A stretch of DNA of 62,412 bases, counting the filler, from Deltaproteobacteria bacterium (GTDB lineage: Bacteria > JAUYMQ01), in NCBI GenBank assembly GCA_030698575.1. It is 8 parts of 8 records of this genome, joined end to end, with 100 filler letters (N's around TTAATTAATTAA, not from the genome) between each part and the next. Parts side by side here need not be neighbours in the genome. Positions count along the whole stretch, not along the records: positions 21,232 to 39,148 come from JAUYMQ010000014.1; 7 more parts are not named here. The stretch is one strand, 5' to 3'. Below, in pieces: positions 19,477-44,117 of the stretch; positions within the stretch are counted from its first letter, which is position 1; every line of letters begins with the position of its first letter. The translations under genes were made by a program, and so were the position numbers. Under the pieces are notes generated by a model. It had not been told where the DNA came from, did no database searches, and saw nothing but the letters and a program-made list of their open reading frames with translations.

Positions 19477-20667
<1,191 letters not shown>

Positions 20668-22108: not shown

Positions 22109-22157
22109 CGCATACCGGCCGTCACAGATTGATTCTTGAGGAGACGAAGTGAGGACT

Positions 22158-23051
22158 TCAGGAAGGGAAGAGGTCCTTGCGCACGTGTCCGAGGGCAGGG
22201 AGCCCCCGGCGGACCTCCTCCAGCCGGTCGGTATCGAGATCCGCCACGATCACCGTCTGTTGGTCAGGCGCCTCTGCAATGACGGTCCCCCACGGGTCGA
22301 TGATCATCGCGTGGCCGTGGGAGGCGCGTTTCGCCGAATGCCGTCCCACCTGCGCGGGGGCCACCACGTAGCAGAGGTTTTCGATGGCGCGCGCACGGAG
22401 CAGGATCTCCCAGTGATCCTTTCCCGTGTGCGCAGTGAACGCAGCGGGAACGAACAGGACCCGCGCCCCGCGGAGCGCCATCTGGCGATAGAGTTCGGGA
22501 AAGCGGAGATCGTAGCAGACCGAGAGGCCCGCCGGGCCGAAGGGGGTCTCGGCCATCACCGGTCTGTCACCAGGCGCAACGGTCTTTGATTCCCGGAACT
22601 CGGGGCCGCCCCGGATGGAGACGTCGAACAGGTGGAGCTTCCGGTAGCAGGCGGCGATCCGCCCCTCCGGATCGAGCAGAAGGCTCGTGTTGAACGTCCG
22701 TCCGTCCGGCGAGCCCGTCGCCTGACGCTCGGCAATCGTCCCGCCCAGGATCCACATATGATGGCGCCGCGCCTGCGCACGGAGCCAGGCCGTCACCGCG
22801 CCATCGGCCTGCCCGGGGGAAACATCGCCCCGAGCGCCTGCCGCATCGGCGCCGCAGCAGGGTTCCGGATCGGGCGCGGACTCTCCCTCGGCCTGCAGGA
22901 AAGCGAAATTCTCGGGGAGAGCGGCCATCTCGGCGCGGCCGGCGGCGGCTTCGGCAAGCAGGCCTTCAGCCGCGTGGAGGTTCGCCTCACGATCGCTCGT
23001 GCTCGTCATCTGGATTGCAGCCACCCGGAACTTCATCTGGCTCTTCCCCAT
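22158..23051 (-). CDS. Carbon-nitrogen hydrolase (Nit1 / deaminated glutathione amidase-like)
   Basis: LPEN, YRKLHLFDV, CYDLRFPE, RARAIEN; start at 23051 or 23036. Confidence 0.9.
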   Translation of the reverse strand: MGKSQMKFRVAAIQMTSTSDREANLHAAEGLLAEAAAGRAEMAALPENFAFLQAEGESAPDPEPCCGADAAGARGDVSPGQADGAVTAWLRAQARRHHMWILGGTIAERQATGSPDGRTFNTSLLLDPEGRIAACYRKLHLFDVSIRGGPEFRESKTVAPGDRPVMAETPFGPAGLSVCYDLRFPELYRQMALRGARVLFVPAAFTAHTGKDHWEILLRARAIENLCYVVAPAQVGRHSAKRASHGHAMIIDPWGTVIAEAPDQQTVIVADLDTDRLEEVRRGLPALGHVRKDLFPS

Positions 23052-23194
23052 CCCGCGCGGGGGATCGACCCGCGCCTCCGGGAGCGTAGTGCATCTGCGG
23101 CGCCCCCTCAAGCGTCGCGCCTTGACGCGGCGGATCGGGGTGCCTAGGATGCCAACGCGCGTTCGTTCCCCATCATCATCGCGGATCCTCCCCC

Positions 23195-23959
23195 ATGGGC
23201 GACTCTATCTCCGGCCTTGATCGGGCGGCAAAGCTTCTCGCCGAGTCTGATCGCGCGATTGCCCTCACGGGTGCGGGCATCAGCGTGGATAGCAACGTTC
23301 CAGCCTTTCGCGGCGCGCAGGGGCTCTGGGATCGATACGATCCGATGGAGTACGCCCACATCGACGCCTTCCGCTCGGACCCGGCGCGCGTCTGGGCGAT
23401 GCTGCGGGAGCTTGGCGATATCATCGCCAACAGCCAGCCCAATCCGGCTCACCGGGCCCTCGCCAGGCTGGAGGAAATCGGGAAACTTGCAGCGGTGATT
23501 ACCCAGAACGTCGACGGGCTCCACCAGCGCGCGGGCTCGAAACAGGTCATCGAGTTTCACGGAAGCGGGGAGCGTCTGGTGTGTCTCAGGGGGCACGGCC
23601 CCTTTGCCCGGAACTCGGTGCGCATCGATGATGCGCCGCCCGGCTGCCCGAACTGCGGGGCGATTCTCAAACCCGATGTCGTCTTCTTCGGCGAAGCGAT
23701 CCCTCCGCGAGCGCTCCTGGCCGCGCAGGTCGAGGTGGAGCGCGCCGACCTCGTGCTCGTTCTGGGAACAAGCGCTGAAGTCTCGCCGGCTTCCGAAATT
23801 CCCGCCGCGGCGCGAGGCCGGGGCGCGCGCGTGATCGAGGTCAACCTCGAACCGACTCATCTCACCGGTGGGGTGGCGGACGTCACACTGCTCGCCTCGA
23901 CGAGCCGGGCGCTCCCCGCGCTCCTGGCCGCCATCGAGGGCGCCGAACCCGCCGCCTGA
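23195..23959 (+). CDS. cobB: NAD-dependent protein deacylase (sirtuin)
   Basis: TGAGIS, TQNVDGLHQRAG, FHGS, KPDVVFFGE, GTS. Confidence 0.92.
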   Translation: MGDSISGLDRAAKLLAESDRAIALTGAGISVDSNVPAFRGAQGLWDRYDPMEYAHIDAFRSDPARVWAMLRELGDIIANSQPNPAHRALARLEEIGKLAAVITQNVDGLHQRAGSKQVIEFHGSGERLVCLRGHGPFARNSVRIDDAPPGCPNCGAILKPDVVFFGEAIPPRALLAAQVEVERADLVLVLGTSAEVSPASEIPAAARGRGARVIEVNLEPTHLTGGVADVTLLASTSRALPALLAAIEGAEPAA

Positions 23960-23996
23960 CAGGGGAAATCTTTCACCCTCCGGGGCAAAGCTGCGA

Positions 23997-25346
23997 ATGG
24001 CCGACTCCATTTCACTCAACCTTTCGAAACTGTTTGCCGCCGCGGCCGGGGCGAACGGCCTGGCGGAGGATGACCTCGGCGCGGAGGCAGCGGCTGCGGC
24101 CTTCGAAGCCTTCGAGCTTCGTCGCACGACGGGCGAGGTTGGCTTCGCCGATCTCGGCGAACGTGAAGACCTCGCAGCGGGCTGCCGTGAGACGGCCGCG
24201 CTCGTGCGGGCCGAAGCCAGCGACTTTCTGCATCTCGGCATAGGCGGCTCGGCCCTCGGTCCCCGGGCCATCCTCCGCGCCCTCAGCCATCCCCAGCGGA
24301 ACCTCCTCCCCCCTGCGCAGAGGGACGGCCCGCGCATATTCTTCGTCGAGAACGTCGACCCCGAGAGCCTTGCCGCGATCCGCGACGTGATTGACCCGTC
24401 GAAAACCTGGATCAATGTGGTGAGCAAGTCTGGCGGCACTGTCGAAACCATCGGCCAGTGGCTCGTCGTCCGCCAGTGGATCGAAGAAGCGGTCGGGCGG
24501 GAAAAAGCGCGCGAGCGCACAATCCTCACGACCGATCCCGAGAAGGGGCTTCTCAGGCGCATGGCCAGGGAGGAGGGGATGAGGACGCTGGAGGTGCCGC
24601 CCAACGTCGGCGGGCGCTTCTCGGCCCTAACCCCGGTCGGGCTCCTTTCTGCTGCGGTGGCCGGGATCGATCCTTCCGAGATTCTCAAGGGCGCCCGGAG
24701 CATGACCGCGCGCTGCGCAAGCGGGCGGGTCGGCGACAACCCCGCGCTGCATCTCGCGGCCTCGCTCCACGCCCTGGACGTGCGCAAGGGGAGGCGCACG
24801 CATGTATTGATGGCCTACGCCGACGCCCTCGCGGACACCGCGGAGTGGTACTGCCAGCTCTGGGCCGAGAGCCTGGGGAAACGTTACGAATCGGAAGGCG
24901 AGCAGGTGTTCAGCGGGCCGACGCCCGTCAAGGCGGTGGGGGCCGTCGATCAGCACTCGCAGCTCCAGCTCTACCTCGAGGGGCCGCAGGACAAGGTGAT
25001 CGTCTTTCTCGGCGTGCGGCGGCTTCGTGAGGAGCTGGAGGTGCCGTCAGGGGACGGCTTGCCCCCTGAGATCGCTTATCTCGGCGGCCATGGCATCGGG
25101 GAGATCCTGGACGTGGAACGGCGCGCAACGGAGGAGGCCCTTCTTCGCAACGGGCGGCCAAGTGCGACGATCCTGCTCGAAGAGCTGACGCCCCGGGCGA
25201 TCGGCGCGCTTTATCAGTTCTGGGAATTGACGACGGCTTACGCCGGGGAACTGTACGGCGTAAATGCTTACGACCAGCCCGCGGTCGAACTGGGTAAACG
25301 CATCGCACAGCGTGTTCTGAGCAGGAGCGGGGGGCAGGGGACCTAG
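23997..25346 (+). CDS. pgi: Glucose-6-phosphate isomerase
   Basis: GIGGSALG, SKSGGTVET, VGGRFS, QLWAESLGK, DQHSQLQ, DQPAVELGK. Confidence 0.93.
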   Translation: MADSISLNLSKLFAAAAGANGLAEDDLGAEAAAAAFEAFELRRTTGEVGFADLGEREDLAAGCRETAALVRAEASDFLHLGIGGSALGPRAILRALSHPQRNLLPPAQRDGPRIFFVENVDPESLAAIRDVIDPSKTWINVVSKSGGTVETIGQWLVVRQWIEEAVGREKARERTILTTDPEKGLLRRMAREEGMRTLEVPPNVGGRFSALTPVGLLSAAVAGIDPSEILKGARSMTARCASGRVGDNPALHLAASLHALDVRKGRRTHVLMAYADALADTAEWYCQLWAESLGKRYESEGEQVFSGPTPVKAVGAVDQHSQLQLYLEGPQDKVIVFLGVRRLREELEVPSGDGLPPEIAYLGGHGIGEILDVERRATEEALLRNGRPSATILLEELTPRAIGALYQFWELTTAYAGELYGVNAYDQPAVELGKRIAQRVLSRSGGQGT

Positions 25347-26326
25347 CTGTTCGGTTCTTCCTTGTTTCGAAACGAGTGAGGATCGATGCCGTTCCGGCGC
25401 ATCACGTCGTAGAAGTCCTTCCGGTCCTTCTGAGCCAGCCGGGCCGCGCGGCTGATGTTTCCCCGGCTCACCCGAAGCACCTGCAGGATGTAGTGACGCT
25501 CGAACTGCCGTTTTGCATCCTTGAAGGAGGGGACCATCTCCGGCGCCAGCGGGTGCTGCAGGAAAAGGTCATCGACGTCGAGCTCTTCCTTTCTCGCAAC
25601 GAGGACCGCTTGCCGGACCTTGTTTTCAAGTTCACGGACATTTCCCGGCCAACTGTATTCCAGCATGCGGGCCTTGAGGCCCTCCGAGAGGCGATTTGCC
25701 CGCGTCGGAAACTCCCGCCCCAGGGCGTGCAGAAAGTGCGCCGCGAGCAGGTTGATGTCCTCGCCGCGTTCCCTGAGAGGTGGCACTTCCACGGTGAATG
25801 ATCGGAAGCTGCGAGCGAGGTCCTGATCGAAGATCGACTGGCCACCGCTCATTTCCGGCACGATTGAGGAGGCAGCGATCAGTTGCGGGGTTGGAAGGCC
25901 GGGATCGGCGTCAGGGAGAACTTCGTCGCCCGTGAGGATGCCGAGAAGGCGCGCCTGCAGCTTCCTGGGAACCGCCTCCATCTGATCCAGGAAGATGGTC
26001 CCACCCGCAGCCTCGGCTAACAGCCCGGGACCGCGCGTGAACCGCGAGAGCGGATTGTTCTCCGGGAGTCCGAACAGCTCTCCCTCGAGAAGGACGTCAG
26101 GGATGACTCCGCAGTGGATCGAAACGAAGGCGTGCGAGGCGCGCGCGCTCGAAGCGTGGATCGTGCGCGCCACGAGTTCCTTGCCGGTGCCGCTCTCGCC
26201 AAGAAGGAACACGGGGTGCGTGGTTCCCGCGGCGATGGCGATCTGATCCAGCACTTTCCTCATCGGAGCCGAGGTTCCGATGAGGACATCGGACTTCCGC
26301 CGGCGGGGCGAGCCCTCAATCTTCAT
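25343..26326 (-). CDS. Degenerate sigma54-activator-like AAA+ / Fis-HTH regulator lacking GAFTGA
   Basis: GESGTGKELVAR, WPGNVRELEN, C-terminal HTH; GAFTGA absent, Walker B FLDQ. Confidence 0.85.
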   Translation of the reverse strand: MKIEGSPRRRKSDVLIGTSAPMRKVLDQIAIAAGTTHPVFLLGESGTGKELVARTIHASSARASHAFVSIHCGVIPDVLLEGELFGLPENNPLSRFTRGPGLLAEAAGGTIFLDQMEAVPRKLQARLLGILTGDEVLPDADPGLPTPQLIAASSIVPEMSGGQSIFDQDLARSFRSFTVEVPPLRERGEDINLLAAHFLHALGREFPTRANRLSEGLKARMLEYSWPGNVRELENKVRQAVLVARKEELDVDDLFLQHPLAPEMVPSFKDAKRQFERHYILQVLRVSRGNISRAARLAQKDRKDFYDVMRRNGIDPHSFRNKEEPNS

Positions 26327-26524
26327 TTTGGCGGAATCCGTAATGTAGTATGGAGGTGCAGGCGGGCCGGACAGTCGCATACTACCTATCCGGAAACGGC
26401 CCGGCTTGTCAACCACAAAGAAATCGAATCGTGGCCCCCATTGATTCCAGGGGATTGCGGGTATGACAAAGTTAAGTGTGACGGGGCCGCACCGGCCCGT
26501 CCGGGCCAGGGGGGTATCGAGGGC

Positions 26525-28279
26525 ATGGCGGTGAGCATCCGGATCCTTCCGGCCAATCTGGCCAACCAGATCGCGGCAGGCGAGGTCGTCGAGCGTCCCG
26601 CGTCCGTCGTCAAGGAACTGGTTGAGAATGCGCTGGACGCGGCCTGCCGCGAGGTTAGCGTCGAGACTGAGGAAGGCGGGCGGAAACTGATCCGCGTGGT
26701 CGACGACGGCGGAGGAATCAGCCCCTCCGACGCCAGGCTCGCCTTCGAGCGGCACGCGACGAGCAAGATCCACACCCAGGCCGACCTCGATCAGGTCGCG
26801 ACCTACGGCTTCCGCGGGGAGGCGCTCCCGAGCATCGCGAGCGTCGCCCGCGTCAGGCTCGTCACGAAGTGCGCGGGGGAGCCTGCGGCAATCGAGATCC
26901 GGATCGCGGCAGGCGTCCTGGAGGAGCAGTCCGAAACCGGAGCGCCCGCCGGGACCCTGGTCGAGGTGACGGACCTTTTCTTCAACACCCCCGCCCGCCG
27001 CAAATTCCTCAAGCGCGCCCCGTTCGAGGCTTCACGGGTGACGGACGTGATGGAGCGCCTCGCGCTTGCCAGGCCGGAGGTGGGGTTCAGGTTGACCCAG
27101 GGGGGACGCACCGTTCTGGACGCGCGCGCCGGCGGGCCGCTCGAAACCCGAATCGTCGATGTCCTCGGCGCGGCGGAGGGGGCGCGCATTCTTCCGGTGG
27201 ATCTCCGCGCCGGGATGCTCCGCGTGCAGGGGTTCACCTCGCCGCCCGACCGGAGTCAGCCGACCGCCCGCGCAATTCACCTCGTTGTCAACGGGCGGCC
27301 CATCCGCGATCGCGCCTTGCAGCACGCGGTCATCTCCGCAGCGCGCGAGTTCATCCCGCAGAACCGGTTCCCTCTCGCAGTTCTCCACCTGACGCTCCCC
27401 CCGGAGGCCGTGGACGAGAATGTGCATCCGGCCAAGCTCGAGATCCGCTTCCGCGACGGGCGCTGGATCTACGAGGCGGTCCGGCGAGCGATTCTCGACG
27501 CGCTTCGGGGATTCGCGCCGGTCAGCGCTGGCCCGGCGCGGGCGGCGCCTCAGGAGGAGGGGGCCGCCGTGCAGGAGGCTCTGGCCGGATACGCCGCCCG
27601 GATATCGGGGGCAACGGTGGGAGAGGGAGCACTGGCTGCCGGAACGGCGGGGACGGCTGAATCCGCGCCGTTCGGGGCGCCTTCGATCGACGCCGGCTTC
27701 GGCGCCGCGCCGACGTTCCTCGGCCAGGCGCATGAGACCTACCTCCTCTTCGAAACAGCTGACGGCCTGCTCGTCGTCGACCAGCATGCGGCCCACGAAC
27801 GGCTCTTATTCGAGCGGATTCGCGCCCAGGCGGATGCAGGCGGCATACCGCGCCAGCCGCTTCTCGTACCGCGAACCATCGAGCTCGGCGGCGGCCGCCG
27901 TGCGCGGCTCGATGCGGCGCGCGACGCGGTCGCGAGGCTCGGTTTCGAAATCGAGCCGTTCGGCGGAAACACGATCGCCGTGAAATGTATTCCCGCCCGG
28001 CTCGAGGGCGCCGATCTGGCGACCCTGCTCGCGCAGGTGGCCGACGATTTGGCGGAGGAGGAAGGTGCGGAGGCGCTCGAGCGTACTTTCCGCCGCGCGC
28101 TCGCGACCGTCGCCTGCCATGCGGCGGTGCGGGCCGGGCAGCGCCTTTCACGCGAGCAGGCGGACGCGCTCGTCCAGTCGATCGAGGCGACCCCCGGCGC
28201 CGCCACCTGCCCCCACGGGCGACCCGTGGCCGTGCGCCTCTCGAGGGCCGATCTCGAACGGCGCTTCGGGAGGTCCTGA
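26525..28279 (+). CDS. mutL: DNA mismatch repair protein MutL (endonuclease type)
   Basis: QIAAGEVVERPASVVKELVEN, GFRGEAL, DQHAAHER, ACH, CPHGRP. Confidence 0.96.
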   Translation: MAVSIRILPANLANQIAAGEVVERPASVVKELVENALDAACREVSVETEEGGRKLIRVVDDGGGISPSDARLAFERHATSKIHTQADLDQVATYGFRGEALPSIASVARVRLVTKCAGEPAAIEIRIAAGVLEEQSETGAPAGTLVEVTDLFFNTPARRKFLKRAPFEASRVTDVMERLALARPEVGFRLTQGGRTVLDARAGGPLETRIVDVLGAAEGARILPVDLRAGMLRVQGFTSPPDRSQPTARAIHLVVNGRPIRDRALQHAVISAAREFIPQNRFPLAVLHLTLPPEAVDENVHPAKLEIRFRDGRWIYEAVRRAILDALRGFAPVSAGPARAAPQEEGAAVQEALAGYAARISGATVGEGALAAGTAGTAESAPFGAPSIDAGFGAAPTFLGQAHETYLLFETADGLLVVDQHAAHERLLFERIRAQADAGGIPRQPLLVPRTIELGGGRRARLDAARDAVARLGFEIEPFGGNTIAVKCIPARLEGADLATLLAQVADDLAEEEGAEALERTFRRALATVACHAAVRAGQRLSREQADALVQSIEATPGAATCPHGRPVAVRLSRADLERRFGRS

Positions 28280-29233
28280 ATGACCCGCTCGCCCAGCGCC
28301 GCGCCGATTCCCCTGCTCGTGGTCGCGGGCCCGACGGGTGTGGGCAAGACGGAAATCAGCCTCGAGCTCGCCGAGAAGTTCGACGCTGAGATCGTCAGCG
28401 CCGACAGCGTCCAGGTCTACAGAGGGATGGACATCGGGAGCGCCAAGCCCACCCGCGAGGAGCAGGCCCGCGTGCCTCATCACGTCATCGACGTGGCCGC
28501 GCCTGATGAAGCTTTCAGTGCCGGGCGCTACGCAGAGCTGGCGGCCGTGGCCATCGAAGACATTACGGGAAGGGGCAAGCGCCCGCTGCTCGTCGGCGGC
28601 AGCGGCCTCTACCTGCGTGCGCTTCTCGAGGGGCTGGTGACCGGCGCATCCGCCGACCCCGAAGTGCGCCGGCTCATCGGGGAGCGGCTCACGAAGGAGG
28701 GCCTCGCGGCCGTCCGCGCGCGGCTCGAGGACGTGGATCCGGCATCGGCCGCACGCATCCATGCCAACGACGCCTACCGTATAGCGCGCGCACTGGAAGT
28801 CTTCGAGCTCACAGGTGAGCCGCTATCAGAGCTCCAGGAACGCCAGCGCCGCCTGCCCCCGGCCTATGATGCCCGCTGGCTCGGGCTCACGGAGGACCGC
28901 CCGGTTCTCTATGATCGAATCGAGGCACGTTGCGATCGGATGATCGCGGCAGGCTTTCTGGAGGAAGTAGTTCGCCTCCGGGAGGAGGGCTTTGGCCTCG
29001 ATCTCCGCCCGCTCCGCTCTCTGGGCTACCGCCAGATGGGGGATGTTGTCCGGGGCGAGCAGACGCTTCCGGAGGCGCTGGACGAGATGAAAAAAGAGAC
29101 GCGGCGATATGCGAAGCGCCAGATCACCTGGTTCCGCGCGCGGCCCGGAATCTCCTGGCTCTCCCCCACGAGAGAGCGGCGGGCAATCCTGGACAGCGCC
29201 CGCGTCCTGCTGGAAAGGGGCCGGGCGGCCTAG
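28280..29233 (+). CDS. miaA: tRNA dimethylallyltransferase
   Basis: [35 protein letters not shown]. Confidence 0.95.
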
Positions 29234-30036
29234 AGGCCGCTCGGCGAATACAGCGGCCCTCGCGCGCCTCGAGGCTCGGGCGGAGAAGCTCCGGCAGAAG
29301 ATCTATAAACAACTCTCGCCCTGGCAAAAGACCCAGCTCTCCCGGCATCCCCAGCGGCCGACGACCCTCGATTACATCGAACGTCTCTTCACGGATTTCG
29401 AGGAGCTCCACGGCGATCGCCTCTTCAGAGATGATCCGTCCATCGTCGGAGGGCTCGCGCGTTTCCGCGATCGTCCGATGGTCGTCCTGGGGCACCAGCG
29501 CGGGCGAACGGCGCGCGAGCGGACGATGCGGCATCGCGGAAAGCCGATGCCGGAGGGCTTCCGGAAATCCCTTCGACTCATGCGCATCGCCGAACGATTC
29601 GCCAAGCCCATCGTGACATTCGTCGACACGACGGGAGCCCATCCGGGGGCCGACGCCGAGGCGCGAGGCCAGGCCGAGGCAATAGCACGCAACTTGCGCG
29701 AACTGAGCGCCCTCCGGACGCCCATCGTAACCTTCATCATTGGGGAAGGGGGCAGCGGCGGGGCTCTCGCGCTCTGCGTGGCCGACCGCATCTTCATGCT
29801 CGAGTACGCCACTTTCAGCGTGATAAGCCCCGAAGGCTGCGCCGCGATCCTCTGGAGGCGGGGCGCACAGGGACCCTGACGCGGCCGCGCGCACCGTCGG
29901 GAGCGCGCTCGAGGAGGCCCTCGAAGAGTTGCGCGAAATTCCATTCGATGCGCTGCTTCAACAGCGCTACGAACGGCTGCGTGCCATCGGGGAGTTCATC
30001 GAAAATACTGCGGAAAGCCGGGCCCCGTCGACTTGA
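29234..30036 (+). pseudogene. accA: Acetyl-CoA carboxylase carboxyltransferase alpha, no start codon and an internal deletion with frameshift
   Basis: [43 protein letters not shown], then in another frame [10 protein letters not shown]...RYERLRAIG; the ~30 codons normally between are absent. Confidence 0.8.
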
Positions 30037-30428
30037 CACCTCCGGGCTGCTCTGTTACGCAGGGGTGTTTCCAGTAGGGGTAGAAAGGGGGCGTGGGCCC
30101 TGGTTTTCGCTCCCGCCCGCTCGGAAACCTCCCCATTGTTCTGATCAGCAAAGAGAGGACCTTCCGCGAGTGGCGTTGCGTGCCCGTGCAGGCGCGTCCG
30201 GCCCGGTGGCCGGATGGCTTTGCAGGGATACCCCCCGCCGCAGGCGCATCGGACGCGTGAAGCGCGTTCTTCTGGCGACAATCCGGATCCCGACGCCGAG
30301 GCGGATCGCGGCCCCTCGGCGCAAATCTCTGACTAGCCGATCCACGCGGACACACCCGCAAGCGCCAACTGGCGGCGGTAACCGCGTGGGAGGGCCAGAC
30401 TGCCGCCCCCCGGGCGGCGTCTGCCGCG

Positions 30429-31214
30429 ATGGTCCTCGGGATGATCGACAAGTACGTTGTACAGCCCGTCTACAACTTCTTCGACGAAGTGGGCAGAATC
30501 GTCCTCTTCGCGATGGAAGCGATCACGCTCCTATTCCGGCCCCCGCTCTTCTGGCGTGAAATCCTCACGGAGTCACATCACGTCGCCACCACCTGCATCA
30601 TTCCCGTCGTCTGCACAGTGGCTCCCATCGGGTGCATCCTCGCGATCCAGGCGCTGAACATTCTCAGGCCCCTGGGCGTTGAAAAGCTCATGAGCTCGAT
30701 GGTCGTCATCATCATGGTACGCGAGCTTTCCCCGGCCATGACGTCGATCATGATCGCGGCCCAGGCCGGGACGTCGATGGCCGCCGAGCTGGGCACGATG
30801 CGGGTCAAGGAAGAGATCGAGGCGCAGGATGTGATGGCCGTGAACCCGATCCAGTACCTCGTCATCCCGCGGTTCATCGCGCTCTTCATCATGTGCCCCA
30901 TTCTTACCGTGATCGCCTTCTTCGTGGGGATGGCCGGGAGCTACGTGATATCGGTGTACGTCGAAGGGGTGAACAAGGGCGCCTTCCTGACGGGTTTGTG
31001 GACCTACCTCGAAATGTATGACGTCGGCGGCGCCATCTTCAAATCCTGCGTCTTCGGCCTCGTTGTGGCGGTCATCAGCTGTTACAAGGGATTCTACGTG
31101 ACCGGCGGCGCGGCGGGGGTAGGCCGGGCTGCGAACGATGCGGTGGTCATCTGCATCACCACTTTCCTCATCCTCAACTACTTCCTCACTTCAATCCTCT
31201 GGATCACGATGTGA
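30429..31214 (+). CDS. mlaE: MlaE/YrbE-family ABC permease, copy 1
   Basis: RELSP, AGTSMAAELGTMRVKEEI, LVIPR, GAAGVGRA. Confidence 0.9.
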   Translation: MVLGMIDKYVVQPVYNFFDEVGRIVLFAMEAITLLFRPPLFWREILTESHHVATTCIIPVVCTVAPIGCILAIQALNILRPLGVEKLMSSMVVIIMVRELSPAMTSIMIAAQAGTSMAAELGTMRVKEEIEAQDVMAVNPIQYLVIPRFIALFIMCPILTVIAFFVGMAGSYVISVYVEGVNKGAFLTGLWTYLEMYDVGGAIFKSCVFGLVVAVISCYKGFYVTGGAAGVGRAANDAVVICITTFLILNYFLTSILWITM

Positions 31215-31242
31215 GGCCAGTTCGCAAGGGGCGAAACGGCAA

Positions 31243-32037
31243 ATGGTGAGGTTCGTCGAGTTCATCGGAGCGCTTTTTGGAAAAGTGCTCAGCGAAGTAG
31301 GGGCCATCGGGCTCTTCGTCATCAAGACCCTGAGCGTGGGGATCTCCACCTTTCCCAACCTCAAGCGGTTCGGCGAAGAGTGCTACAACATCGGCATCCA
31401 GTCCCTCTTCGTGGTGTGCAGCGTCGGGGCCTTCATCGGCATGAGCACCGCCCTGGTCGGCTACGCCACTCTCAAGGACCTCGGCGCCCAGAACCTGGTC
31501 GGTATCTTTATCGGCATCGCGAGCATTCGCGAGCTCGGCCCCGCTGTGGCGGCCTTCATGGTGGCCGCGAAAGCGGGATCGGGCATGGCCGCCCACATCG
31601 CCACAATGCGCGTGAAGGAGCAGATCGACGCGATGGAGGTCCAGGCGGTCAATCCCTTCTGGTATCTCATCGTGCCACGCTTTCTCGCGATCATGGTGGT
31701 GCTGCCGGTCCTCGTCGTCTGGAACGATTTCTTCATGCTCGGGACCGGCTATATGATCGCCGTCTTCCAGCTCAAGATCAACAGCGGCGCCGTGATGGAG
31801 AATCTCCTCTCCACGGTGGCCATGGCGGACATCTGGAAGGGCATGATCAAGGGCTGGGTTCTGGCTCTGTTCATCGTGAGCATCTGCACCTTCAAGGGAT
31901 TCACCTGTGAACCCGGGGCCCTGGGCGTAGGAAAGGCGACGAACCAGGCGGTGGTCTACTGCATCGCCATTCTGATTATCATCAACTTCTTCCTGAGCCA
32001 GTGGCTCTACGGCGGCATCGGCCTGCGCGGCATGTGA
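31243..32037 (+). CDS. mlaE: MlaE/YrbE-family ABC permease, copy 2
   Basis: RELGP, MRVKEQIDAM, GALGVGKAT. Confidence 0.9.
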   Translation: MVRFVEFIGALFGKVLSEVGAIGLFVIKTLSVGISTFPNLKRFGEECYNIGIQSLFVVCSVGAFIGMSTALVGYATLKDLGAQNLVGIFIGIASIRELGPAVAAFMVAAKAGSGMAAHIATMRVKEQIDAMEVQAVNPFWYLIVPRFLAIMVVLPVLVVWNDFFMLGTGYMIAVFQLKINSGAVMENLLSTVAMADIWKGMIKGWVLALFIVSICTFKGFTCEPGALGVGKATNQAVVYCIAILIIINFFLSQWLYGGIGLRGM

Positions 32038-32064
32038 GCAGCGCTCCGGAAGAAGGAGAAACAA

Positions 32065-32856
32065 TTGGCAAGCAAGGAAGAATTCCGGAAGTACGAAACG
32101 GGCGAGCCGATCGTGACGGTGAGGAATCTCTCCAAGTCCTTCGGCTCACTTCGCGTGCTGAAGGATCTGAACTGCGACATCAAGGCCGGCGAAACCACGG
32201 TATTCCTGGGGCCGAGCGGGACGGGCAAGTCGGTCTTCATCAAGCACATTGTCGGATTGCTCAAGCCGGACGAGGGTGAACTCGAGGTCATGGGGCGGAA
32301 CGTGCCGACCCTGGGGGAACGGGAGCTGTACGAACTGCGGAAGCATCTCGGCCTGGCCTTCCAGCTCGGCGCGCTCTTCGATTCGCTGAACGTCTATGAC
32401 AACGTTTCGTTCCCGCTGTCGCACCACACGCGCATGCGCCAGAAGGAGATCAAGAGCCGGGTCGCCGAAGTGCTCGAGCTCGTCGGCCTGCCCGGCACGG
32501 AGAACAAGCTCACGACCGAGCTCTCGACAGGTCAGCAGAAGCGCGTGGGGCTTGCCCGGGCGCTGGCCCTGAACCCGACCATCGTTCTCTTCGACGAGCC
32601 GACGACGGGGCTCGACCCGATCCTTTGCACGACCATCGACGAGCTGATTCTCAAGCTCAAGACGGAACTCGGCAAAACCTTCATCGTCATCAGCCATGAC
32701 ATCGAAGGCACCTGGAACATGGCGGATCAGGTGGGTGTGCTCTACCAGGGAACGCTTCTCAGGTACGGGCGAAACGCCGACGTCAGGCGCGACGACAACA
32801 TCTTTCTGAAGCAGTTCTTCGGGCGCACGGAAGACGGCCCCATGATCGGGGTTTGA
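32065..32856 (+). CDS. mlaF: MlaF/Mkl-family ABC ATPase, copy 1 (variant signature LSTGQ)
   Basis: GPSGTGKS, FQLGALFDS, LFDEPTTGLDP, ISHD; TTG start after AAGGAG. Confidence 0.9.
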   Translation: MASKEEFRKYETGEPIVTVRNLSKSFGSLRVLKDLNCDIKAGETTVFLGPSGTGKSVFIKHIVGLLKPDEGELEVMGRNVPTLGERELYELRKHLGLAFQLGALFDSLNVYDNVSFPLSHHTRMRQKEIKSRVAEVLELVGLPGTENKLTTELSTGQQKRVGLARALALNPTIVLFDEPTTGLDPILCTTIDELILKLKTELGKTFIVISHDIEGTWNMADQVGVLYQGTLLRYGRNADVRRDDNIFLKQFFGRTEDGPMIGV

Positions 32857-32908
32857 GCGGATTTCAGGGCGTCCCCGGCAACGCGCCGGGAGAGGGAGAC
32901 GAGATCTC

Positions 32909-33844
32909 GTGGGGTTTCTGGATCAAATCGCGAAGCAGTTCCGGGGCGAATACGCCTACACGCCGGAGCTCGTGCTGAAGGAGATGCGGGAGAAGGGGAT
33001 CAAGATCCGCGTCCGGGGGCTCACAAAGAGCTTTGGCGGGCTGACCGTGCTGAAGGATCTCGATCTGGATGTCTACGATGGCGAGACCCTTTGCATGCTC
33101 GGCGAGAGCGCATCGGGCAAGACCGTTTTCCTGAAGAGCTTGGCGGGGATCGAGCACCCCGATTCAGGCGAGATATACATCGATGAGCATGATGTCATGA
33201 ACGCGCCGCCCCGGCAGCTATACGAGATGCGGCTCGGCCTTTCCATGCAGTTCCAGCAGGGAGCGCTCTTCGAGAGCGTCTCGGCGCTCGAAAACGTTCA
33301 GTGGCCCCTGGTGATGCACGCGACGGTCTCCCCGCAGGAGGCCGAAGATCGCGCGGCGAAGGACCTGGTTTCGGTCGGGCTCACGCCGGACATGCACTGG
33401 AAGCTTCCCTCCCTACTTTCAGGCGGGATGCAGAAGCGAGTGGCGCTCTGCCGGGCGATTGTCGAGCGAAAGGCGCTCATCTTGTTCGATGAACCGAACG
33501 CCGGACTGGACCCCATCAAGTGCGCGGCCATCGACAACCTGCTTCTGCGTATCAAGAAGCAGTTCAAGGCGACTCTCATCATGAATACATCCGAACTCTT
33601 CACTGCTTATAACCTCTCGGATCGGATCGGCATCATCTACCGGGGAAAGATCGTGGAGATCGGGGAACCCGGATCGATCAAGAGCAGCAAGCACCCCTAT
33701 GTCGACGAGTTCACGCGCAAGTCCAAGGAATTCCTCCCCCAGATCCTGGCCTATCAAGAGGAGCTGGCCAGCTGGGAGGGTGAAAAGGTCGATGACGGCC
33801 GGCGCGATTCGGAGCATCTGGGGAAGACGACAGGCGGCTTCTGA
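32909..33844 (+). CDS. mlaF: MlaF-family ABC ATPase, copy 2 (H-loop His lost)
   Basis: GESASGKT, FQQGALF, LSGGMQKR, LFDEPNAGLDP, NTSE in place of SHD. Confidence 0.88.
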   Translation: MGFLDQIAKQFRGEYAYTPELVLKEMREKGIKIRVRGLTKSFGGLTVLKDLDLDVYDGETLCMLGESASGKTVFLKSLAGIEHPDSGEIYIDEHDVMNAPPRQLYEMRLGLSMQFQQGALFESVSALENVQWPLVMHATVSPQEAEDRAAKDLVSVGLTPDMHWKLPSLLSGGMQKRVALCRAIVERKALILFDEPNAGLDPIKCAAIDNLLLRIKKQFKATLIMNTSELFTAYNLSDRIGIIYRGKIVEIGEPGSIKSSKHPYVDEFTRKSKEFLPQILAYQEELASWEGEKVDDGRRDSEHLGKTTGGF

Positions 33845-33857
33845 AAGGAGCTATTCG

Positions 33858-34763
33858 ATGGCGGCGACCAGCAGGGTTTACAGAACCGAGCTCGTACTCG
33901 GGATCTTCCTCATCATCTCCCTGGCCATTCTCGCTTACCTGGCCATGCAGACGGGCGCGTTCATCGTCGAGGACAGGGTGAAGCTCGACGTTGTCTTCGA
34001 CGATGCCTCGGGAATCGTCACCGACTCGGCCGTCATGATCGCCGGCGTCCAGATCGGTCGAGTCGCGGGTCTCGACGTGGACCACAACCAGGCCATCGTG
34101 CACACGGAAGTGAACCGCTCGGCGAACGTCCGTGAGGACGTGGAGGCCCTCATCCGGGCGCGATCGCTCCTGGGAGAAAAGTACATCGAGCTCAAGCCGC
34201 AGTCCCGGGATGCGAAGATGGCGCCGGCCGACTTCAAGGTCCCCTCGAGCCATACGGGGTTCTCCACGGAGATCGATCAGCTGACAACGAAAATCGAGCC
34301 GTTGATCGACAAGGCGCTGGTCATCCTGAACAAGATCGACCCCGAGGATCCCGCAAAGGACAACCTCGTCAACAATCTGAACAGCCTCGCCGCCACCCTC
34401 TCCCAGGGACTGGACGGTAAGGGTCCGGCGCTCGGCAGCTTCATCGAGAACACCTCGAGCCTTACCGAACGGTTAGACGGGATCCTGGCGCGGAACGACA
34501 CGCGCATTGACCGCGTGCTCATCAATCTCGATTCTCTGCTCGCGGACGCAAACAACCAGAAAATCATCCTGGCGCTCAACGACCTGACCTCCACCCTGAA
34601 CCCCGTGATGGAGGATATCCAGCGCCGGAAGGTGATTCCGAAGCTCAGCGGGGTCCTGACACGCCTGGACGTCATCGCAGCCCGGGCGGAGCTGATCGAC
34701 GAAATGGCCATCCGCAAGTTCCTGCAGACTGAGGGAATCAAGGTGCACATTCGGGCCTACTAG
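33858..34763 (+). CDS. mlaD: MlaD/MCE-domain protein, copy 1
   Basis: N-terminal TM, FDDASGI, VMIAGVQIGRV, SLLGEKYIEL, helical C-terminal region. Confidence 0.9.
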   Translation: MAATSRVYRTELVLGIFLIISLAILAYLAMQTGAFIVEDRVKLDVVFDDASGIVTDSAVMIAGVQIGRVAGLDVDHNQAIVHTEVNRSANVREDVEALIRARSLLGEKYIELKPQSRDAKMAPADFKVPSSHTGFSTEIDQLTTKIEPLIDKALVILNKIDPEDPAKDNLVNNLNSLAATLSQGLDGKGPALGSFIENTSSLTERLDGILARNDTRIDRVLINLDSLLADANNQKIILALNDLTSTLNPVMEDIQRRKVIPKLSGVLTRLDVIAARAELIDEMAIRKFLQTEGIKVHIRAY

Positions 34764-34796
34764 CGGGAGCCCTATCAAAAAAACCGCTGCGGTGGG

Positions 34797-34802
34797 TATA
34801 AT
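34797..34802 (+). promoter_or_regulatory. Possible internal sigma70 -10 element upstream of the second mlaD
   Basis: Perfect TATAAT in an intergenic gap with an upstream A-tract; weak -35. Confidence 0.35.
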
Positions 34803-34862
34803 AGCCGCGCCCTGGAGAGTGGATGGAATTCACCTTCACGGCTGGCCGGACAGGGGGATGGG

Positions 34863-35771
34863 TTGGCAAGACCCAGGGACCAGATATGGAATCGCATGGC
34901 CGGGCTCGGGGCGATCATCGCCTTTTTGGCCTTCGCCTATATTGCCGTCACGAGCGGCTCCAAGGCCATGAAGGACGAGAAGAACGTCACCCTCTATGTG
35001 AGTGACGCGCTGGGCCTGGTCGAGAACTCGTCGGTCATGATCGCCGGTGTGGAGATCGGGAGGGTGACGACTCTCGCGGTCGCCCATGACAAGGCCAAGA
35101 TCATTATCGCCCTGGATCCCACCGAGCAGATCCCCAGACGGGTGCGCGGCGTCGTACGCGCCCGCTCGCTCCTCGGCGAGAAATTTCTCGAACTCATCCC
35201 GATGGATGCTGTGCCGGGCGGGGAGATCATGACCGGAGGCGAGGAGATCGGCGAGGAGGACACGTCAAAGACCCTCGAACTGGATCAATTTGCCACCGAC
35301 TTCGATCCCCTCATCGACCGCCTCGGGCGGTTTCTCGACAGCATCAACCCGCCCGATCCCGCCAAGCCGAACCTCATTGAGACGCTCGCTGACGCCACGG
35401 GTTCCCTGGCGGAGGGCCTCGATGGCAAGGAAGAGGCCATCGGCGATCTGGTGGTCAATCTGAACGACGCGGTAGTGCGCGCCGACGGCATCGTTGCCCG
35501 AAACAGCGAGCGGGGAGGGCGGGTCTTCGAGAACCTCGATGCCGTCCTTCTGGACGGCAAGCGAACCCAGATTGTACCTCGACTTTCAGAAGCGGCCTCC
35601 AGCCTGACCACCGTGGCCAGGGAGGTCGATAAAGACCAGACAGTGGCAAAACTCGACAAGGTGTTGGTCCGGTTGGACCCGATTCTGGCCCGGGCAGAGA
35701 TGCTCGACGAAACAGCGCTCCGGAAGTTCCTCCAGGTGGAGGGCATCAAGGGGCACATAAGAGCCTGGTAA
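34863..35771 (+). CDS. mlaD: MlaD/MCE-domain protein, copy 2
   Basis: N-terminal TM, VMIAGVEIGRV, SLLGEKFLEL; clear paralog of copy 1. Confidence 0.9.
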   Translation: MARPRDQIWNRMAGLGAIIAFLAFAYIAVTSGSKAMKDEKNVTLYVSDALGLVENSSVMIAGVEIGRVTTLAVAHDKAKIIIALDPTEQIPRRVRGVVRARSLLGEKFLELIPMDAVPGGEIMTGGEEIGEEDTSKTLELDQFATDFDPLIDRLGRFLDSINPPDPAKPNLIETLADATGSLAEGLDGKEEAIGDLVVNLNDAVVRADGIVARNSERGGRVFENLDAVLLDGKRTQIVPRLSEAASSLTTVAREVDKDQTVAKLDKVLVRLDPILARAEMLDETALRKFLQVEGIKGHIRAW

Positions 35772-35865
35772 GTTCAGCTTTCCCGGGGGATGAGCGCCCC
35801 GAGGCACAGCCTAGGTTGTGCCCGCCAACGCGGCGCTCTCGACCCCGGAGAGAAGGAGGAAGAAG

Positions 35866-37413
35866 ATGAGTGGGAAGGTGAGCAAGTTCCTGTTCGCGTT
35901 CCTGGTGGCGGGGCTCGTACTCGTGCCCGTCGCGCGGAACTTCGCGCAGGACATGCCGGAAGAGTCAGCGGTGGATCCCACCGTGGAAGCACCTACGCAG
36001 ATAGATTCAGAGACGACGGCTGCGGAGGTCGAGGAAGTCCAGCAGATTGAGGCAGAGTCCGTGGTGAAGGCGAAGGGCGGCATCGGACCCGAGAGCGGCC
36101 TGGGCGTCTTCAGCCGCCATGCGGACCCCGTGGTCCTCAAGGGCGAGCAGATCCCGAAATTCGCCGGTGCGACCGAGGACACCATCCGCGTCTTTGCCAA
36201 CAAGGACGGAAGCGGCCTGAAGCCTATTCCTTACCAGATGGACGAGCGCAATCAGTGGGGCGAATTCGTCGTGATCAAGGGCAAGCGCGTCGTGGCGGAT
36301 GAGGACGAGGGTGCCTTCGACGAGAACGACGAGGTCGTCTTCCTGACGCGAGACCTGGGCTCGAAGGCGGCCAAGGACAGCTGGCCGTCGGGTTTCAAGG
36401 AGGCCTACGAGGTCGAGGTCACCGATCCGCTGACCTCGGTCAAGGGCTACGCCTACGTGCTGAGCTACGCGAGCGCCAGCGCGGCGCCGGCCCCTTCGAC
36501 GGATGACTACATCAGCTACGAGGAGAAGGGCCAGGGCGTGACCCACGCAATGAGCTACGAGCTGGGCTTCGTGAAGCCCGCCTCGGGTCTCGACTATGAT
36601 CTTCTCACCGTCATGCCGGCAGCCGGGGGCAGCGGCAAGGACTGGTTCGACCGCCTCAAGGTGCGCGTGTTGCAGAACCTCAAGCGGTTCATGACGCTGG
36701 GAATCCCGACCCGTCTCGACCGGACCGAGAAGAACTTCCTGGTCAAGGTCTACGGTTACAAGGACGGCCCCGTGCGCGTGCTCCGGGTGATGAAGGTCAA
36801 CCTTCAGCTCATCTGGAAGCTTCCCGCTCCGGGCGCCACGGTCAACTCGGTCTTCTATCCTGAGTGGATCGAGTGGCCGGTGCCGGTCAACCTGCCCTTC
36901 AAGCCCAGCTGGGCCTTCTACAACGTCGAGCTGGACGTCTCCCACGACTACGACTTCGGCGTGAACGATGGCGTGAAGGTGTACAACTCGAAGGACCAGA
37001 GGTGGGATGTCGTCGACGGCAAGATGACGCCCGAGGAGACGGCGGTCAACAAGGCTGACGTGCGGGGAAGCTACTACGGCTTCGACGCCACTGCGGCCGG
37101 CCACGGCGCGGGCTTCTACACGGTGAGGCCCCCGAAGAGCTTCTCGGCGTCCCTCATTGGGCTCTACAACGACTCGACAGAGGTCGGGGTCGAGCCCGAG
37201 TACTACGAGGGGGACGGCAACAAGAAGGACAGGGAGGAAAATATCGCGGGCGCGCTCCCCCTCGCCGGCGGCCGCTTCGTGAACTGGGACGACGTGGGGA
37301 AGGGCATCCACACGATCTTCTGGTACCACTTCTACCCGCCGTTCTATACCCTCGGGAAGGAGAAGGCCTTCCTGGACATCATCGATCATCCCATCTCCGT
37401 GACGGTCAACTGA
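35866..37413 (+). CDS. Exported protein of unknown function, paralog A (MCE-operon associated)
   Basis: ATG after AAGGAGG; signal peptide ending NFA-Q; strong GC3 bias; no recognisable family. Confidence 0.85.
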   Translation: MSGKVSKFLFAFLVAGLVLVPVARNFAQDMPEESAVDPTVEAPTQIDSETTAAEVEEVQQIEAESVVKAKGGIGPESGLGVFSRHADPVVLKGEQIPKFAGATEDTIRVFANKDGSGLKPIPYQMDERNQWGEFVVIKGKRVVADEDEGAFDENDEVVFLTRDLGSKAAKDSWPSGFKEAYEVEVTDPLTSVKGYAYVLSYASASAAPAPSTDDYISYEEKGQGVTHAMSYELGFVKPASGLDYDLLTVMPAAGGSGKDWFDRLKVRVLQNLKRFMTLGIPTRLDRTEKNFLVKVYGYKDGPVRVLRVMKVNLQLIWKLPAPGATVNSVFYPEWIEWPVPVNLPFKPSWAFYNVELDVSHDYDFGVNDGVKVYNSKDQRWDVVDGKMTPEETAVNKADVRGSYYGFDATAAGHGAGFYTVRPPKSFSASLIGLYNDSTEVGVEPEYYEGDGNKKDREENIAGALPLAGGRFVNWDDVGKGIHTIFWYHFYPPFYTLGKEKAFLDIIDHPISVTVN

Positions 37414-37448
37414 CCGGTTCGGTGAATATGGGTATCGTCTAGAACGCC

Positions 37449-37513
37449 ACCGGGGGCGGCGCTGAACCAGAGCCGCCCCCGGTTTCTCGACGGGGGCGCG
37501 GGGTTCCGCGCCC
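37449..37513 (+). terminator. Intergenic double hairpin (terminator, attenuator or stabiliser)
   Basis: ACCGGGGGCGGC/GCCGCCCCCGGT 12-bp stem then TTCTC; second stem GGGCGCGG/CCGCGCCC. Confidence 0.5.
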
Positions 37514-37527
37514 ACAGGAGTTCACTC

Positions 37528-38997
37528 ATGGCACGGTTCTCACTCAGGCTCTTCCTCCCGCTACTCGTTCTCGGGCTCACGCTCATTCCCGTGGCGCGCA
37601 ATCACGCCCAGGACGCCCTACCACCCGCTGATGTGCCCGATGCGGTCGCCGTGGCTGTGGCCGACGAGGCGCCTTCCACCACGGCCGCAGCGTTTTTTTC
37701 ACGACAGGCCGATCCGGTGGTCATCAAGGGCGAGCAGCTGCCCGCTTTCCTCGGCTCCACCGAGGACAAGATGCGCGTGTTCGCGAAGCGCGACGGCAAG
37801 CTCCGGCCCATTCCCTACCAGATGGACGAGCGGAACCAGTGGGGGGAGTTTGTGCTCCACCACGGCAAGCGCGTTGTTCCCGATGAGGACTCAGGCGAGT
37901 ACGACGAGAACGACGAACTCGTGTTCATAACCCGTGATCTCGGCGCCAAGGCGCCCAAGAGCGAGTGGCCGACGGGGACGAAGGAGGCTTTCGAGGTCGA
38001 GGTGACCGACCCACTGACGTCCGACAAGGCCTACGCCTACGTAATGCTGTACGAGACGGCTTCCGCGGCTCCGGCGCCGTCCACGGTGGACTACGTGACG
38101 TACGAGCAGAAGGGCGGAGGGTTGATCCGCGCGACGAACTACGAGATCGGTTGGCTCAAGTCGTCCTCGGGGCTCGATTACAACCACCTCGTCGTGACGA
38201 AGGAGGCCGGCGGCGACAATATCAATCACTTCGACAAGCTCAAGATCCGGGTGCTGCAGAACCTCCGTCGGTTCCTGACGCTGGGTCTCTCACCCCGGCT
38301 CGACCGGAGCGAGGAGAATTTCCTCGTCAAGGTCTACGGCTACCGCGACGGCCCGGTGCGCGTGCTCCGGGTCATGAAGGTCAACCTCCAGCTCGTCTGG
38401 AAACTTCCGGCGCCGGGTGCGACGGTGAACTACGTCTTCTACCCGGAATGGATGGAGATCCCGGTTCCCATCAACCTGCCCTTCAAGCCGACCTGGGCCT
38501 TCTACGACCTCGAGCTCGACACTTCGCACGACTACGACTTCGACCCGAAAGCCGGCGTGAAGGTCTACAGCTCGAAGACCGACCGCTGGGATGTGGTGGA
38601 CGGCAAGATGAGCCCCGAGGAAACGGCGGTGAACAAGGAGGAGGTGAAGGGAACCTACGCCGGCTATGACGGCTCCGCCGCCGGCGTGGGGTCTGCGTTC
38701 TTCACCATCCGGGCGCCCAAGAGCTTCCCCGTGAAGATCCTCGGACTCTACCTGGATGACCCGGAAGACGGGCTCGAACCCGAGTATTATGAGGGCGACG
38801 GCAACAAGAAGAATCGGACAGAGTGGATCAAGGGGTCCTCTTTCCTGGGTGGATACCGCTTCATCGACTGGGAGGGTGTCAGCAAGGGGATCCACACCGT
38901 CTACTACTACCAGTTCTATCCTCCCCACTATAAGCCGGGGGGTGAGAAAGCGTTCCTGAACATCATCGATCATCCGGTCGCGGTCAGCATCAACTAA
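37528..38997 (+). CDS. Exported protein of unknown function, paralog B
   Basis: AGGAG RBS; signal peptide ending NHA-Q; long blocks identical to paralog A. Confidence 0.85.
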   Translation: MARFSLRLFLPLLVLGLTLIPVARNHAQDALPPADVPDAVAVAVADEAPSTTAAAFFSRQADPVVIKGEQLPAFLGSTEDKMRVFAKRDGKLRPIPYQMDERNQWGEFVLHHGKRVVPDEDSGEYDENDELVFITRDLGAKAPKSEWPTGTKEAFEVEVTDPLTSDKAYAYVMLYETASAAPAPSTVDYVTYEQKGGGLIRATNYEIGWLKSSSGLDYNHLVVTKEAGGDNINHFDKLKIRVLQNLRRFLTLGLSPRLDRSEENFLVKVYGYRDGPVRVLRVMKVNLQLVWKLPAPGATVNYVFYPEWMEIPVPINLPFKPTWAFYDLELDTSHDYDFDPKAGVKVYSSKTDRWDVVDGKMSPEETAVNKEEVKGTYAGYDGSAAGVGSAFFTIRAPKSFPVKILGLYLDDPEDGLEPEYYEGDGNKKNRTEWIKGSSFLGGYRFIDWEGVSKGIHTVYYYQFYPPHYKPGGEKAFLNIIDHPVAVSIN

Positions 38998-39074
38998 TCG
39001 GCGGCGCCCCGCGCGCCAGCCTAGGCGAGCCCCGAGCCCGGGTCGCGGGCAGGGGGCGCAGAGGGGAGACCTAC

Positions 39075-39148
39075 ATGAAGCGGCCTGGCATCGTAACACT
39101 GAACGCGATCATCAACCTTTTCTTCGGGGTCGTGTTCACCTTCATCAA
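39075..39148 (+). CDS. N-terminus of a membrane protein, truncated by contig end
   Basis: GGGGAG RBS then MKRPGIVTLNAIINLFFGVVFTFI. Confidence 0.5.
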
Positions 39149-39248
39149 NNNNNNNNNNNNNNNNNNNNNNNNNNNNNNNNNNNNNNNNNNNNTTAATTAA
39201 TTAANNNNNNNNNNNNNNNNNNNNNNNNNNNNNNNNNNNNNNNNNNNN
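39149..39248. other. Artificial contig linker
   Basis: N-TTAATTAATTAA-N. Confidence 0.98.
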
Positions 39249-40504
<1,256 letters not shown>

Positions 40505-44017: not shown

Positions 44018-44117
44018 NNNNNNNNNNNNNNNNNNNNNNNNNNNNNNNNNNNNNNNNNNNNTTAATTAATTAANNNNNNNNNNNNNNNNNNNNNNNNNNN
44101 NNNNNNNNNNNNNNNNN
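44018..44117. other. Artificial contig linker
   Basis: N-TTAATTAATTAA-N. Confidence 0.98.

Follow-up and report, generated by a model that had tools for sequence, protein, structure and literature searches.

A candidate ATPase heterodimer with one consensus and one partly degenerate ATP site in an MCE transporter operon built of paralogue pairs

Why would a lipid transporter of the MCE class encode two different ATPases? According to the available sections of their structure papers, the solved MCE transporters compared here, MlaFEDB and Mce1, are each driven by a symmetric ATPase homodimer. The question is raised by an operon at positions 30429 to 38997 of a 62,412-nucleotide stretch of DNA from a Deltaproteobacteria bacterium (GenBank assembly GCA_030698575.1), in which eight parts of the genome are joined end to end; we refer to this whole stretch as the window. 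Side by side and 52 nt apart, the operon encodes two different nucleotide-binding domains (NBDs), the ABC ATPases F1 (32065..32856, + strand, 263 aa) and F2 (32909..33844, + strand, 311 aa), both matching PF00005. The first-pass annotation of the window took them for an obligate heterodimer with one active and one impaired ATP site. On the evidence of motifs, their conservation, and gene order, we consider it probable that F1 and F2 form a heterodimer with one consensus and one partly degenerate ATP site.

Translation of the exact coordinates returned the genes and motifs as they had first been annotated. F1 contains Walker A GPSGTGKS (32209-32232), the Q-loop residue Q100, the signature LSTGQ (32521-32535) with Thr155 in the usual Gly position, Walker B IVLFDE (32581-32598), the D-loop TGLD, and the H-loop SHD (32692-32700), in which His211 is present. 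F2 contains Walker A GESASGKT (33101-33124), Q116 in the Q-loop, the signature LSGGM (33416-33430), which is the consensus for the Mla/MCE type, Walker B LILFDE (33476-33493), and the D-loop AGLD. Its H-loop position reads TSE (33587-33595), with Ser228 in place of His, and no alternative His lies close to this position in the translation. All of these motifs are on the + strand, and both proteins have a GxxxxGK[ST] Walker A, a Q-loop Gln, and a Walker B of the form hhhhDE; within the two clades these three elements do not vary, apart from the deletion in the F2 orthologue P0021. Translation starts at a TTG behind the Shine-Dalgarno sequence AAGGAG in F1 and at a GTG behind a Shine-Dalgarno-like sequence in F2; both starts agree with the N termini of orthologues.

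Each ATP in an ABC dimer is sandwiched by both NBDs: one contributes its Walker A, Walker B, and H-loop, and its partner contributes the signature. Mapped onto this geometry, F1 Walker A, Walker B, and His211 together with F2 LSGGM make up a consensus composite site. The other composite site, made of F2 Walker A, Walker B, and Ser228 and of F1 LSTGQ, is off consensus at two catalytic elements but retains the Walker B Glu and every residue that binds nucleotide. The loss of His from F2 and the altered signature of F1 therefore fall in the same composite site, as the first-pass annotation had reasoned and as the logic of the exporter PatAB would have it. Because of this site geometry, neither an F1 homodimer nor an F2 homodimer has a fully consensus site, and the heterodimer alone does.

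Each change is uncommon across the family and fixed within its own clade. For a motif census, we took 267 proteins of at most 350 aa from a set of 389, the 122 longer ones being excluded. All 21 members of the F2 clade have TSE at the H-loop position and none keeps the His, so that the general retention of this residue which would have refuted the first-pass reading is not seen; all 21 also have LSGGM and the Walker B pair D194-E195. Within the F1 clade (n = 15), the signature is LSTGQ in 9 and LSTGE in 6, and the H-loop SHD and Walker A GPSGTGKS are present in 15/15. By comparison, the signature is xSGGx in 231/231 other relatives, and the H-loop His is present in 230/231. The exception, P0217, is the only single-domain protein among these 231 to lack the His, having TSD instead; its signature, LSGGM, is normal, it clusters with MlaF relatives of the alphaproteobacterial type, and it may represent an independent loss.

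The F2 Walker A had also been read as degenerate, and here our analysis disagrees. It is GESASGKT in 12 of the 21 F2 orthologues, GESGSGKT in 7, GESGAGKT in 1, and deleted in 1 (P0021), so that position 4 is Ala in 12/20 and Gly in 8/20 intact sequences; the Lys and Thr are invariant, and all intact versions fit GxxxxGK[ST]. Since the variant is neither fixed nor outside the P-loop consensus, we do not count it as a degeneracy. P0021 itself, a single metagenome sequence on a 5063-base stretch, lacks about 25 residues including the entire Walker A and is otherwise a normal F2; its deletion may be an assembly or gene-call artefact or may mean that the F2 ATP site has degenerated further here.

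Both clades are sharply delimited. F2 has orthologues in 21 clusters at least 70% identical to it, and the next match is 44% identical (word-indexed search, best 120 of 4308). In an exhaustive HMMER search of 1.84 billion representatives, the F2 clade is a single 50%-identity cluster (P0019, 518 bits), with the next single-domain match at 199 bits. Orthologues of F1 form 15 clusters at 84 to 100% identity, followed by a drop to 56%. F2 is not decaying but under strong purifying selection: across 20 orthologues, it has a mean column identity of 85%, and K71, T72, Q116, the entire signature, D194, E195, and the D-loop are invariant. The finding thus concerns a narrow, uncultured clade, and the claim is a sequence-based one.

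We also predicted the structure of the F1/F2 complex, using F1, F2, two ATP, and two Mg as input and alignments made for these proteins. The prediction scored 0.86, compared with 0.36 for the best of three controls. The mark of 0.86 is reached by 58/80 solved complexes and by 2/110 mismatched pairs, counts that are rough because own alignments and ligands were used. At least 94% of contacts are shared between runs, and the pLDDT (predicted local distance difference test) of the partner is at least 86. The predicted interface is canonical and head-to-tail: F1 48-56 faces F2 198-208 and F1 152-157 faces F2 64-72, which places the Walker A region of F1 opposite the D-loop and signature of F2, and the Walker A of F2 opposite the signature of F1. 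F2 residues 228 to 231 lie within the predicted interface.

A second predicted contact joins the C-terminal tails, F1 249-263 with F2 267-296. In the orthologue alignment, F2 carries extensions at both ends, one of 30 aa at the N terminus (32909-32998, + strand) with the conserved segment ..ARTPEP.LREM.. and one of 45 aa at the C terminus (33707..33841, + strand) with the near-invariant end KVDDGRRD..HLGK.TGGF. The last 19 residues of the tail are near-invariant across orthologues that are only 75 to 78% identical overall. For residues 297 to 311, the prediction shows no confident contact with F1, which suggests that the end of the tail has another partner.

How degenerate is the second site? 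ATP sites of unequal competence have so far been described chiefly in type IV exporters, PatAB, TAP, and CFTR among them; TM287/288 and MsRv1273c/72c are further heterodimeric exporters with one degenerate site. In the accessible sections of the PatAB literature, three replacements mark the degenerate site: PatA has Gln for His in its H-loop and Asp for Glu in its Walker B, and the PatB signature is SAGQ instead of SGGQ; the other ATP site is consensus. The F1/F2 pair resembles this arrangement in that the H-loop His is lost from one NBD and its partner has a non-Gly residue at signature position 3 (SAGQ there, STGQ here), both changes again lying in one composite site opposite a consensus one. 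Unlike in PatA, however, the Walker B Glu is kept in F2. Two of the three PatAB hallmarks deviate, and by its sequence the F2 site is partly degenerate only; to that extent the sequence fits the earlier reading of an impaired site. The systems also differ in architecture, since exporters of the PatAB type have the type IV fold with the NBD fused to the transmembrane domain, whereas the ATPases here are separate subunits of a transporter of another fold class.

In the mechanism that we propose, F1 and F2 would pair head-to-tail on a heterodimer of the two permeases encoded in the operon, E1 and E2. The degenerate site, judging by other ABC heterodimers, would bind ATP and hydrolyse it slowly or not at all, and would hold the dimer together or tune it. 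The consensus site would drive transport and spend roughly one ATP in each cycle. F1 and F2 would each clasp the other with its C-terminal tail, as MlaF and MceG do.

Several points weigh against this reading, which draws on sequence and structure prediction. The F2 site may still turn over ATP, because Glu195 is kept where PatA has Asp, and it is by analogy that a Thr in the signature or a Ser in the H-loop would lower hydrolysis in this family. Co-conservation, which had been proposed as a check on the pairing, is seen as fixation of LSTG[QE] and TSE within the respective clades but not as replicated co-variation, because each change arose once, on a single branch; moreover, two independent changes have a prior of 1 in 2 of sharing a site. 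The complex prediction may owe its pass to a likeness to solved NBD dimers, and, NBD dimers being a textbook pair, it does not separate a heterodimer from homodimers. Evidence that F1 and F2 occur together elsewhere comes from record sizes: 4/15 F1 clusters match an F2 cluster exactly in the size of the longest record (17917, 5678, 5063, and 4588), which indicates co-location in other genomes by such coincidences. Of at least 600 stretches matched in a profile search of genome contigs, the 80 loci kept are ordinary ones. Finally, the operon may continue, and further subunits such as a regulator may be missing from it, because the sequence ends 151 nt after the last gene.

An alternative close to our reading keeps the heterodimer and makes both ATP sites competent, with Ser228 and Thr155 as tolerated, lineage-specific substitutions that bring no functional asymmetry. 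This alternative would expect what all intact F2 orthologues show, namely a conserved Lys in Walker A, Gln in the Q-loop, and Asp-Glu pair in Walker B. It is also in line with an observation in the PatAB work, where Vmax fell by only about 30% when Ala was put in place of the H-loop residue that is degenerate to begin with, from which it follows that H-loop residues differ in weight between the two sites. The same source, however, describes the consensus H-loop His of PatB as essential for nucleotide hydrolysis. In addition, the near-universal His and universal signature Gly of the 231 relatives imply that both positions are normally strongly constrained, and both substitutions lie within the same composite site. 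We regard two competent sites as unlikely, although this is the alternative that fares best.

The layout of the operon bears on whether F1 and F2 belong to one machine at all. Its eight genes, all on the + strand and tightly packed (intergenic gaps of 13 to 114 nt), are arranged as interleaved paralogue pairs in the order E1-E2-F1-F2-D1-D2-X1-X2. The gene set of an MCE, or type VIII ABC, transporter is complete within this single same-strand cluster (PF02405, PF02470, and PF00005, each twice). Pairwise identity is 37% for E1/E2, 39% for F1/F2 (over 242 residues), 40% for D1/D2, and 68% for X1/X2. Positions 30429 to 38997 hold a single operon that encodes a lipid transporter of the Mce1-like kind (type VIII ABC), in which all parts are present as diverged paralogue pairs. 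The interleaving fits gene-by-gene duplication for a heteromer and does not look like an en-bloc copy of a homomeric system.

An en-bloc copy is what one would expect if the operon encoded two parallel homomeric transporters, E1-F1-D1-X1 and E2-F2-D2-X2, with F1 and F2 each homodimeric like MlaF and MceG. The similar divergence of the E, F, and D pairs, such as an en-bloc copy would leave, speaks for two such transporters, as do the homodimeric ATPases of MlaFEDB and Mce1; in Francisella, two Mla pathways operate independently, although their loci lie apart. But en-bloc duplication predicts the order E-F-D-X-E-F-D-X rather than an interleaved one. Moreover, neither site of an F2 homodimer would have the His, and both sites of an F1 homodimer would carry LSTGQ, so that a consensus site would exist in neither. 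The predicted F1/F2 interface is also confident, though not discriminating. We consider two parallel transporters distinctly improbable. The heterodimer claimed in the first-pass annotation fits both the interleaved pairs and the complex prediction, even if the latter would be compatible with homodimers.

It seems to us very improbable that F2 derives from an ATPase but now only regulates or scaffolds the complex it binds, without catalysis and without a working nucleotide sandwich with F1. Although its conserved N- and C-terminal extensions with their invariant tail, its stem, the longest in the tree, and the absence of the entire Walker A region from P0021 would suit such a role, the P-loop is intact in 20/21 orthologues, LSGGM, the Q-loop, and Walker B are kept in all, conservation of the signature is what a consensus site with F1 requires, and P0021 is one sequence that may be an artefact.

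The heterodimer with one consensus and one partly degenerate site would be unusual for an MCE transporter, as had been supposed at the outset. A search of genome contigs with a profile of the F2 clade gave 80 other MlaEF loci, kept from at least 600 stretches; these are ordinary loci with a single permease and a single ATPase, none of the 80 has two ATPase genes beside the permease, and the best match among them is 44% identical. The design of one normal and one weakened ATP site is familiar from drug exporters; for the MCE class, the matches listed in full-text searches of freely accessible articles, main text only, include no description of two different ATPases or of a degenerate site. The passages found in a survey of Mla systems in Veillonella mention MlaDE duplications and say nothing on ATPase pairs. 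The printed names "MlaF1/MlaF2" and "MceG2" were considered as prior cases and rejected, as they are stoichiometry notation, promoter names, or labels for the two separate Francisella loci.

Among solved systems, the closest relative is Mce1. F1 and F2 had been named after MlaF, but neither is an MlaF equivalog: they score 194 and 126.3 bits, respectively, against the cut-off of 441 bits of the NCBIfam model NF008809. The top solved match for both is instead the mycobacterial MceG (8fed_G; 210.6 bits for F1 and 162.4 bits for F2), and Mce1 subunits are also the top solved matches for E1 and D1. As described in the available text of the Mycobacterium smegmatis Mce1 structure paper (PDB 8FED/8FEE/8FEF), which names 8FED and an MceG-GFP chimera, Mce1 consists of a YrbE1A/B heterodimer, an Mce1A-F heterohexamer, and an MceG homodimer, encoded in the order yrbEA-yrbEB-mceA-F. 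The interleaved pairs here recall that gene order, together with the heteromeric permease and MCE ring that go with it; from the genes, we infer a heterodimeric permease and a heteromeric ring here as well. The two systems further share a helical "needle" part in the MCE proteins and a C-terminal extension of the ATPase, which in MceG contacts the neighbouring ATPase, according to the same text. They differ in that Mce1 has a single ATPase, MceG, as a consensus homodimer, whereas this operon has two ATPases with complementary deviations. They also differ in that Mce1 has six MCE genes and this operon two, with short products of about 300 aa, and in that X1 and X2 have no counterpart.

Escherichia coli MlaFEDB (PDB 6XBD and others) shares with the operon the type VIII plan of an MlaE permease, an MlaD/MCE ring, and an ABC ATPase, and its LSGGM-type signature is also that of F2. 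The ATPase subunits of MlaFEDB join in a C-terminal "handshake", which resembles the predicted contact between the F1 and F2 tails. All subunits of MlaFEDB are homomeric and the STAS protein MlaB is needed, whereas the operon as sequenced contains no MlaB gene.

Signature asymmetry is also found in a group of fused two-NBD MlaF-like proteins, P0121-P0124 (546 to 581 aa), for three of which, out of four, MlaF is the best NCBIfam match. Their N-terminal NBD has LSGGM, and the C-terminal NBD has VSAGE, ISSGQ, ISSGQ, or ISNGE, off consensus at position 3 as in F1. In contrast to the F1/F2 pair, they are single polypeptides and keep the His in both H-loops. As candidate relatives of the F1/F2 pair, these proteins were rejected: in the tree described below, their N and C halves are mutual sisters, both F1 and F2 being closer to the N halves, and their high rank in the exhaustive search reflects the sum of two domain scores. 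They are a second case, independent of the first, in which MlaF-like ATPases have unequal signatures, and because they deviate too, asymmetry may have arisen more than once in this family.

Did F2 arise from F1 by local duplication? A quick tree of 63 rows (9/21 F2 sequences, 9/15 F1 sequences, 37 other relatives, and 8 halves of fused proteins) nests F1 with P0285-type relatives (55% identical, support 95) and leaves F2 unplaced (support 74). An approximately unbiased (AU) test did not reject a single clade of F1 and F2 (p 0.272), and the tree and the test together favour neither local duplication nor separate recruitment of F2. In the three size-matched cluster pairs outside the window, F2 is 70 to 76% and F1 84 to 88% identical to the window proteins, from which we conclude that F2 evolves faster than F1; the longer stem of F2 (1.89, compared with 1.22 for F1) agrees.

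Of the other genes of the operon, E1 (30429..31214, 261 aa) encodes an MlaE/YrbE-type permease (PF02405, 228 bits) whose top solved match is YrbE1A (8fed_I, 117 bits). It is followed after 28 nt by a second such permease, E2 (31243..32037; PF02405, 219 bits), the reading frame of which opens at 31138 with the ATG at 31243 as its likely start. D1 (33858..34763; PF02470, 60.5 bits) has an N-terminal membrane anchor, an MCE domain, and a helical region, and its top solved match, Mce1B (8fed_B, 58.2 bits), extends over the latter two. D2 (34863..35771; PF02470, 54.3 bits) is the second MCE protein. Both D1 and D2 miss the curated cut-off of TIGR00996, the actinobacterial-type Mce model (99.7 and 101.6 bits against 140.5). 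Their C-terminal segments (34719-34763 and 35727-35771) are near-identical, ending in ..KFLQTEGIKVHIRAY and ..KFLQVEGIKGHIRAW, with an aromatic final residue in each, and may act as a strand on which an outer partner docks.

X1 (35866..37413) encodes a secreted protein of no described family; its reading frame opens at 35818, and the ATG at 35866 stands behind AAGGAGG. X2 (37528..38997) is its paralogue by pairwise comparison. Both have signal-peptide-like N-terminal segments without a lipobox Cys. Neither has a relative in Pfam, NCBIfam, or the PDB, and X2 has no solved match at E <= 0.01. In the Atlas, they fall in clusters of hypothetical proteins only, 440 to 475 aa long and commonest in Pseudomonadota, with a fold loosely like that of PcRGLX-type beta-sandwich proteins. 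X1 and X2 may work with the MCE needle as partners in the periplasm or the outer membrane. A scan of positions 29700 to 39400 found no promoters above shuffled sequences and 7 terminator-like sites where shuffles predict 6.6. The part of the window that carries these genes spans 21232 to 39148 (17,917 bp).

Outside the operon, the window requires some care in reading. Filler occupies 5787-5886, 13187-13286, 21132-21231, 39149-39248, 44018-44117, 47556-47655, and 50249-50348, each as two runs of 44 N's 12 bases apart; synteny across these sites is not real, and open reading frames (ORFs) that cross them are partly artefact. In size, the parts in between agree with the records of the window's own proteins, at 17917 for 21232-39148 and 7845 for 13287-21131. 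An Rfam search returned no RNA gene, and EF-Tu is encoded on a different part from the operon. One such ORF, at 39197-40504 (- strand), is PhoH-like and runs into an N run. Its Pfam match covers only profile positions 2 to 117 of 205. Beyond the match come about 200 residues, an LLGDG-type segment among them, and these point to the insertion of an intein or of an element resembling a homing endonuclease. A sugar-modification cluster at 53663-60147 (- strand), on a different part from the MCE operon, contains two NeuB-family genes, a cytidylyltransferase, a carbamoyltransferase, a methyltransferase, and a DegT-type aminotransferase and probably makes a nonulosonic acid.

How much ATP an MCE transporter spends per lipid, and what sets the direction of its transport, are still debated. 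If F1 and F2 do form a heterodimer with one consensus and one partly degenerate site, the asymmetric-site mechanism would extend to a different ABC fold, the roles of the two ATP sites could be separated without mutating a homodimer, and the MCE machine would be able to turn fully heteromeric outside Actinobacteria. We can go further only tentatively, and the following is doubtful, if possible. This would be the first MCE transporter that is heteromeric throughout (E1/E2, F1/F2, a D1/D2 ring, and X1/X2) with one hydrolysing site. The second site and the invariant tail of F2 would serve as a built-in ATP-sensing or regulatory module in place of MlaB-like regulators, and asymmetric ATPases would have arisen at least twice, as the split pair and as the fused P0121-P0124. 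Were this so, lipid transport between membranes would have come more than once upon the same solution, a directionally biased cycle that uses one ATP.

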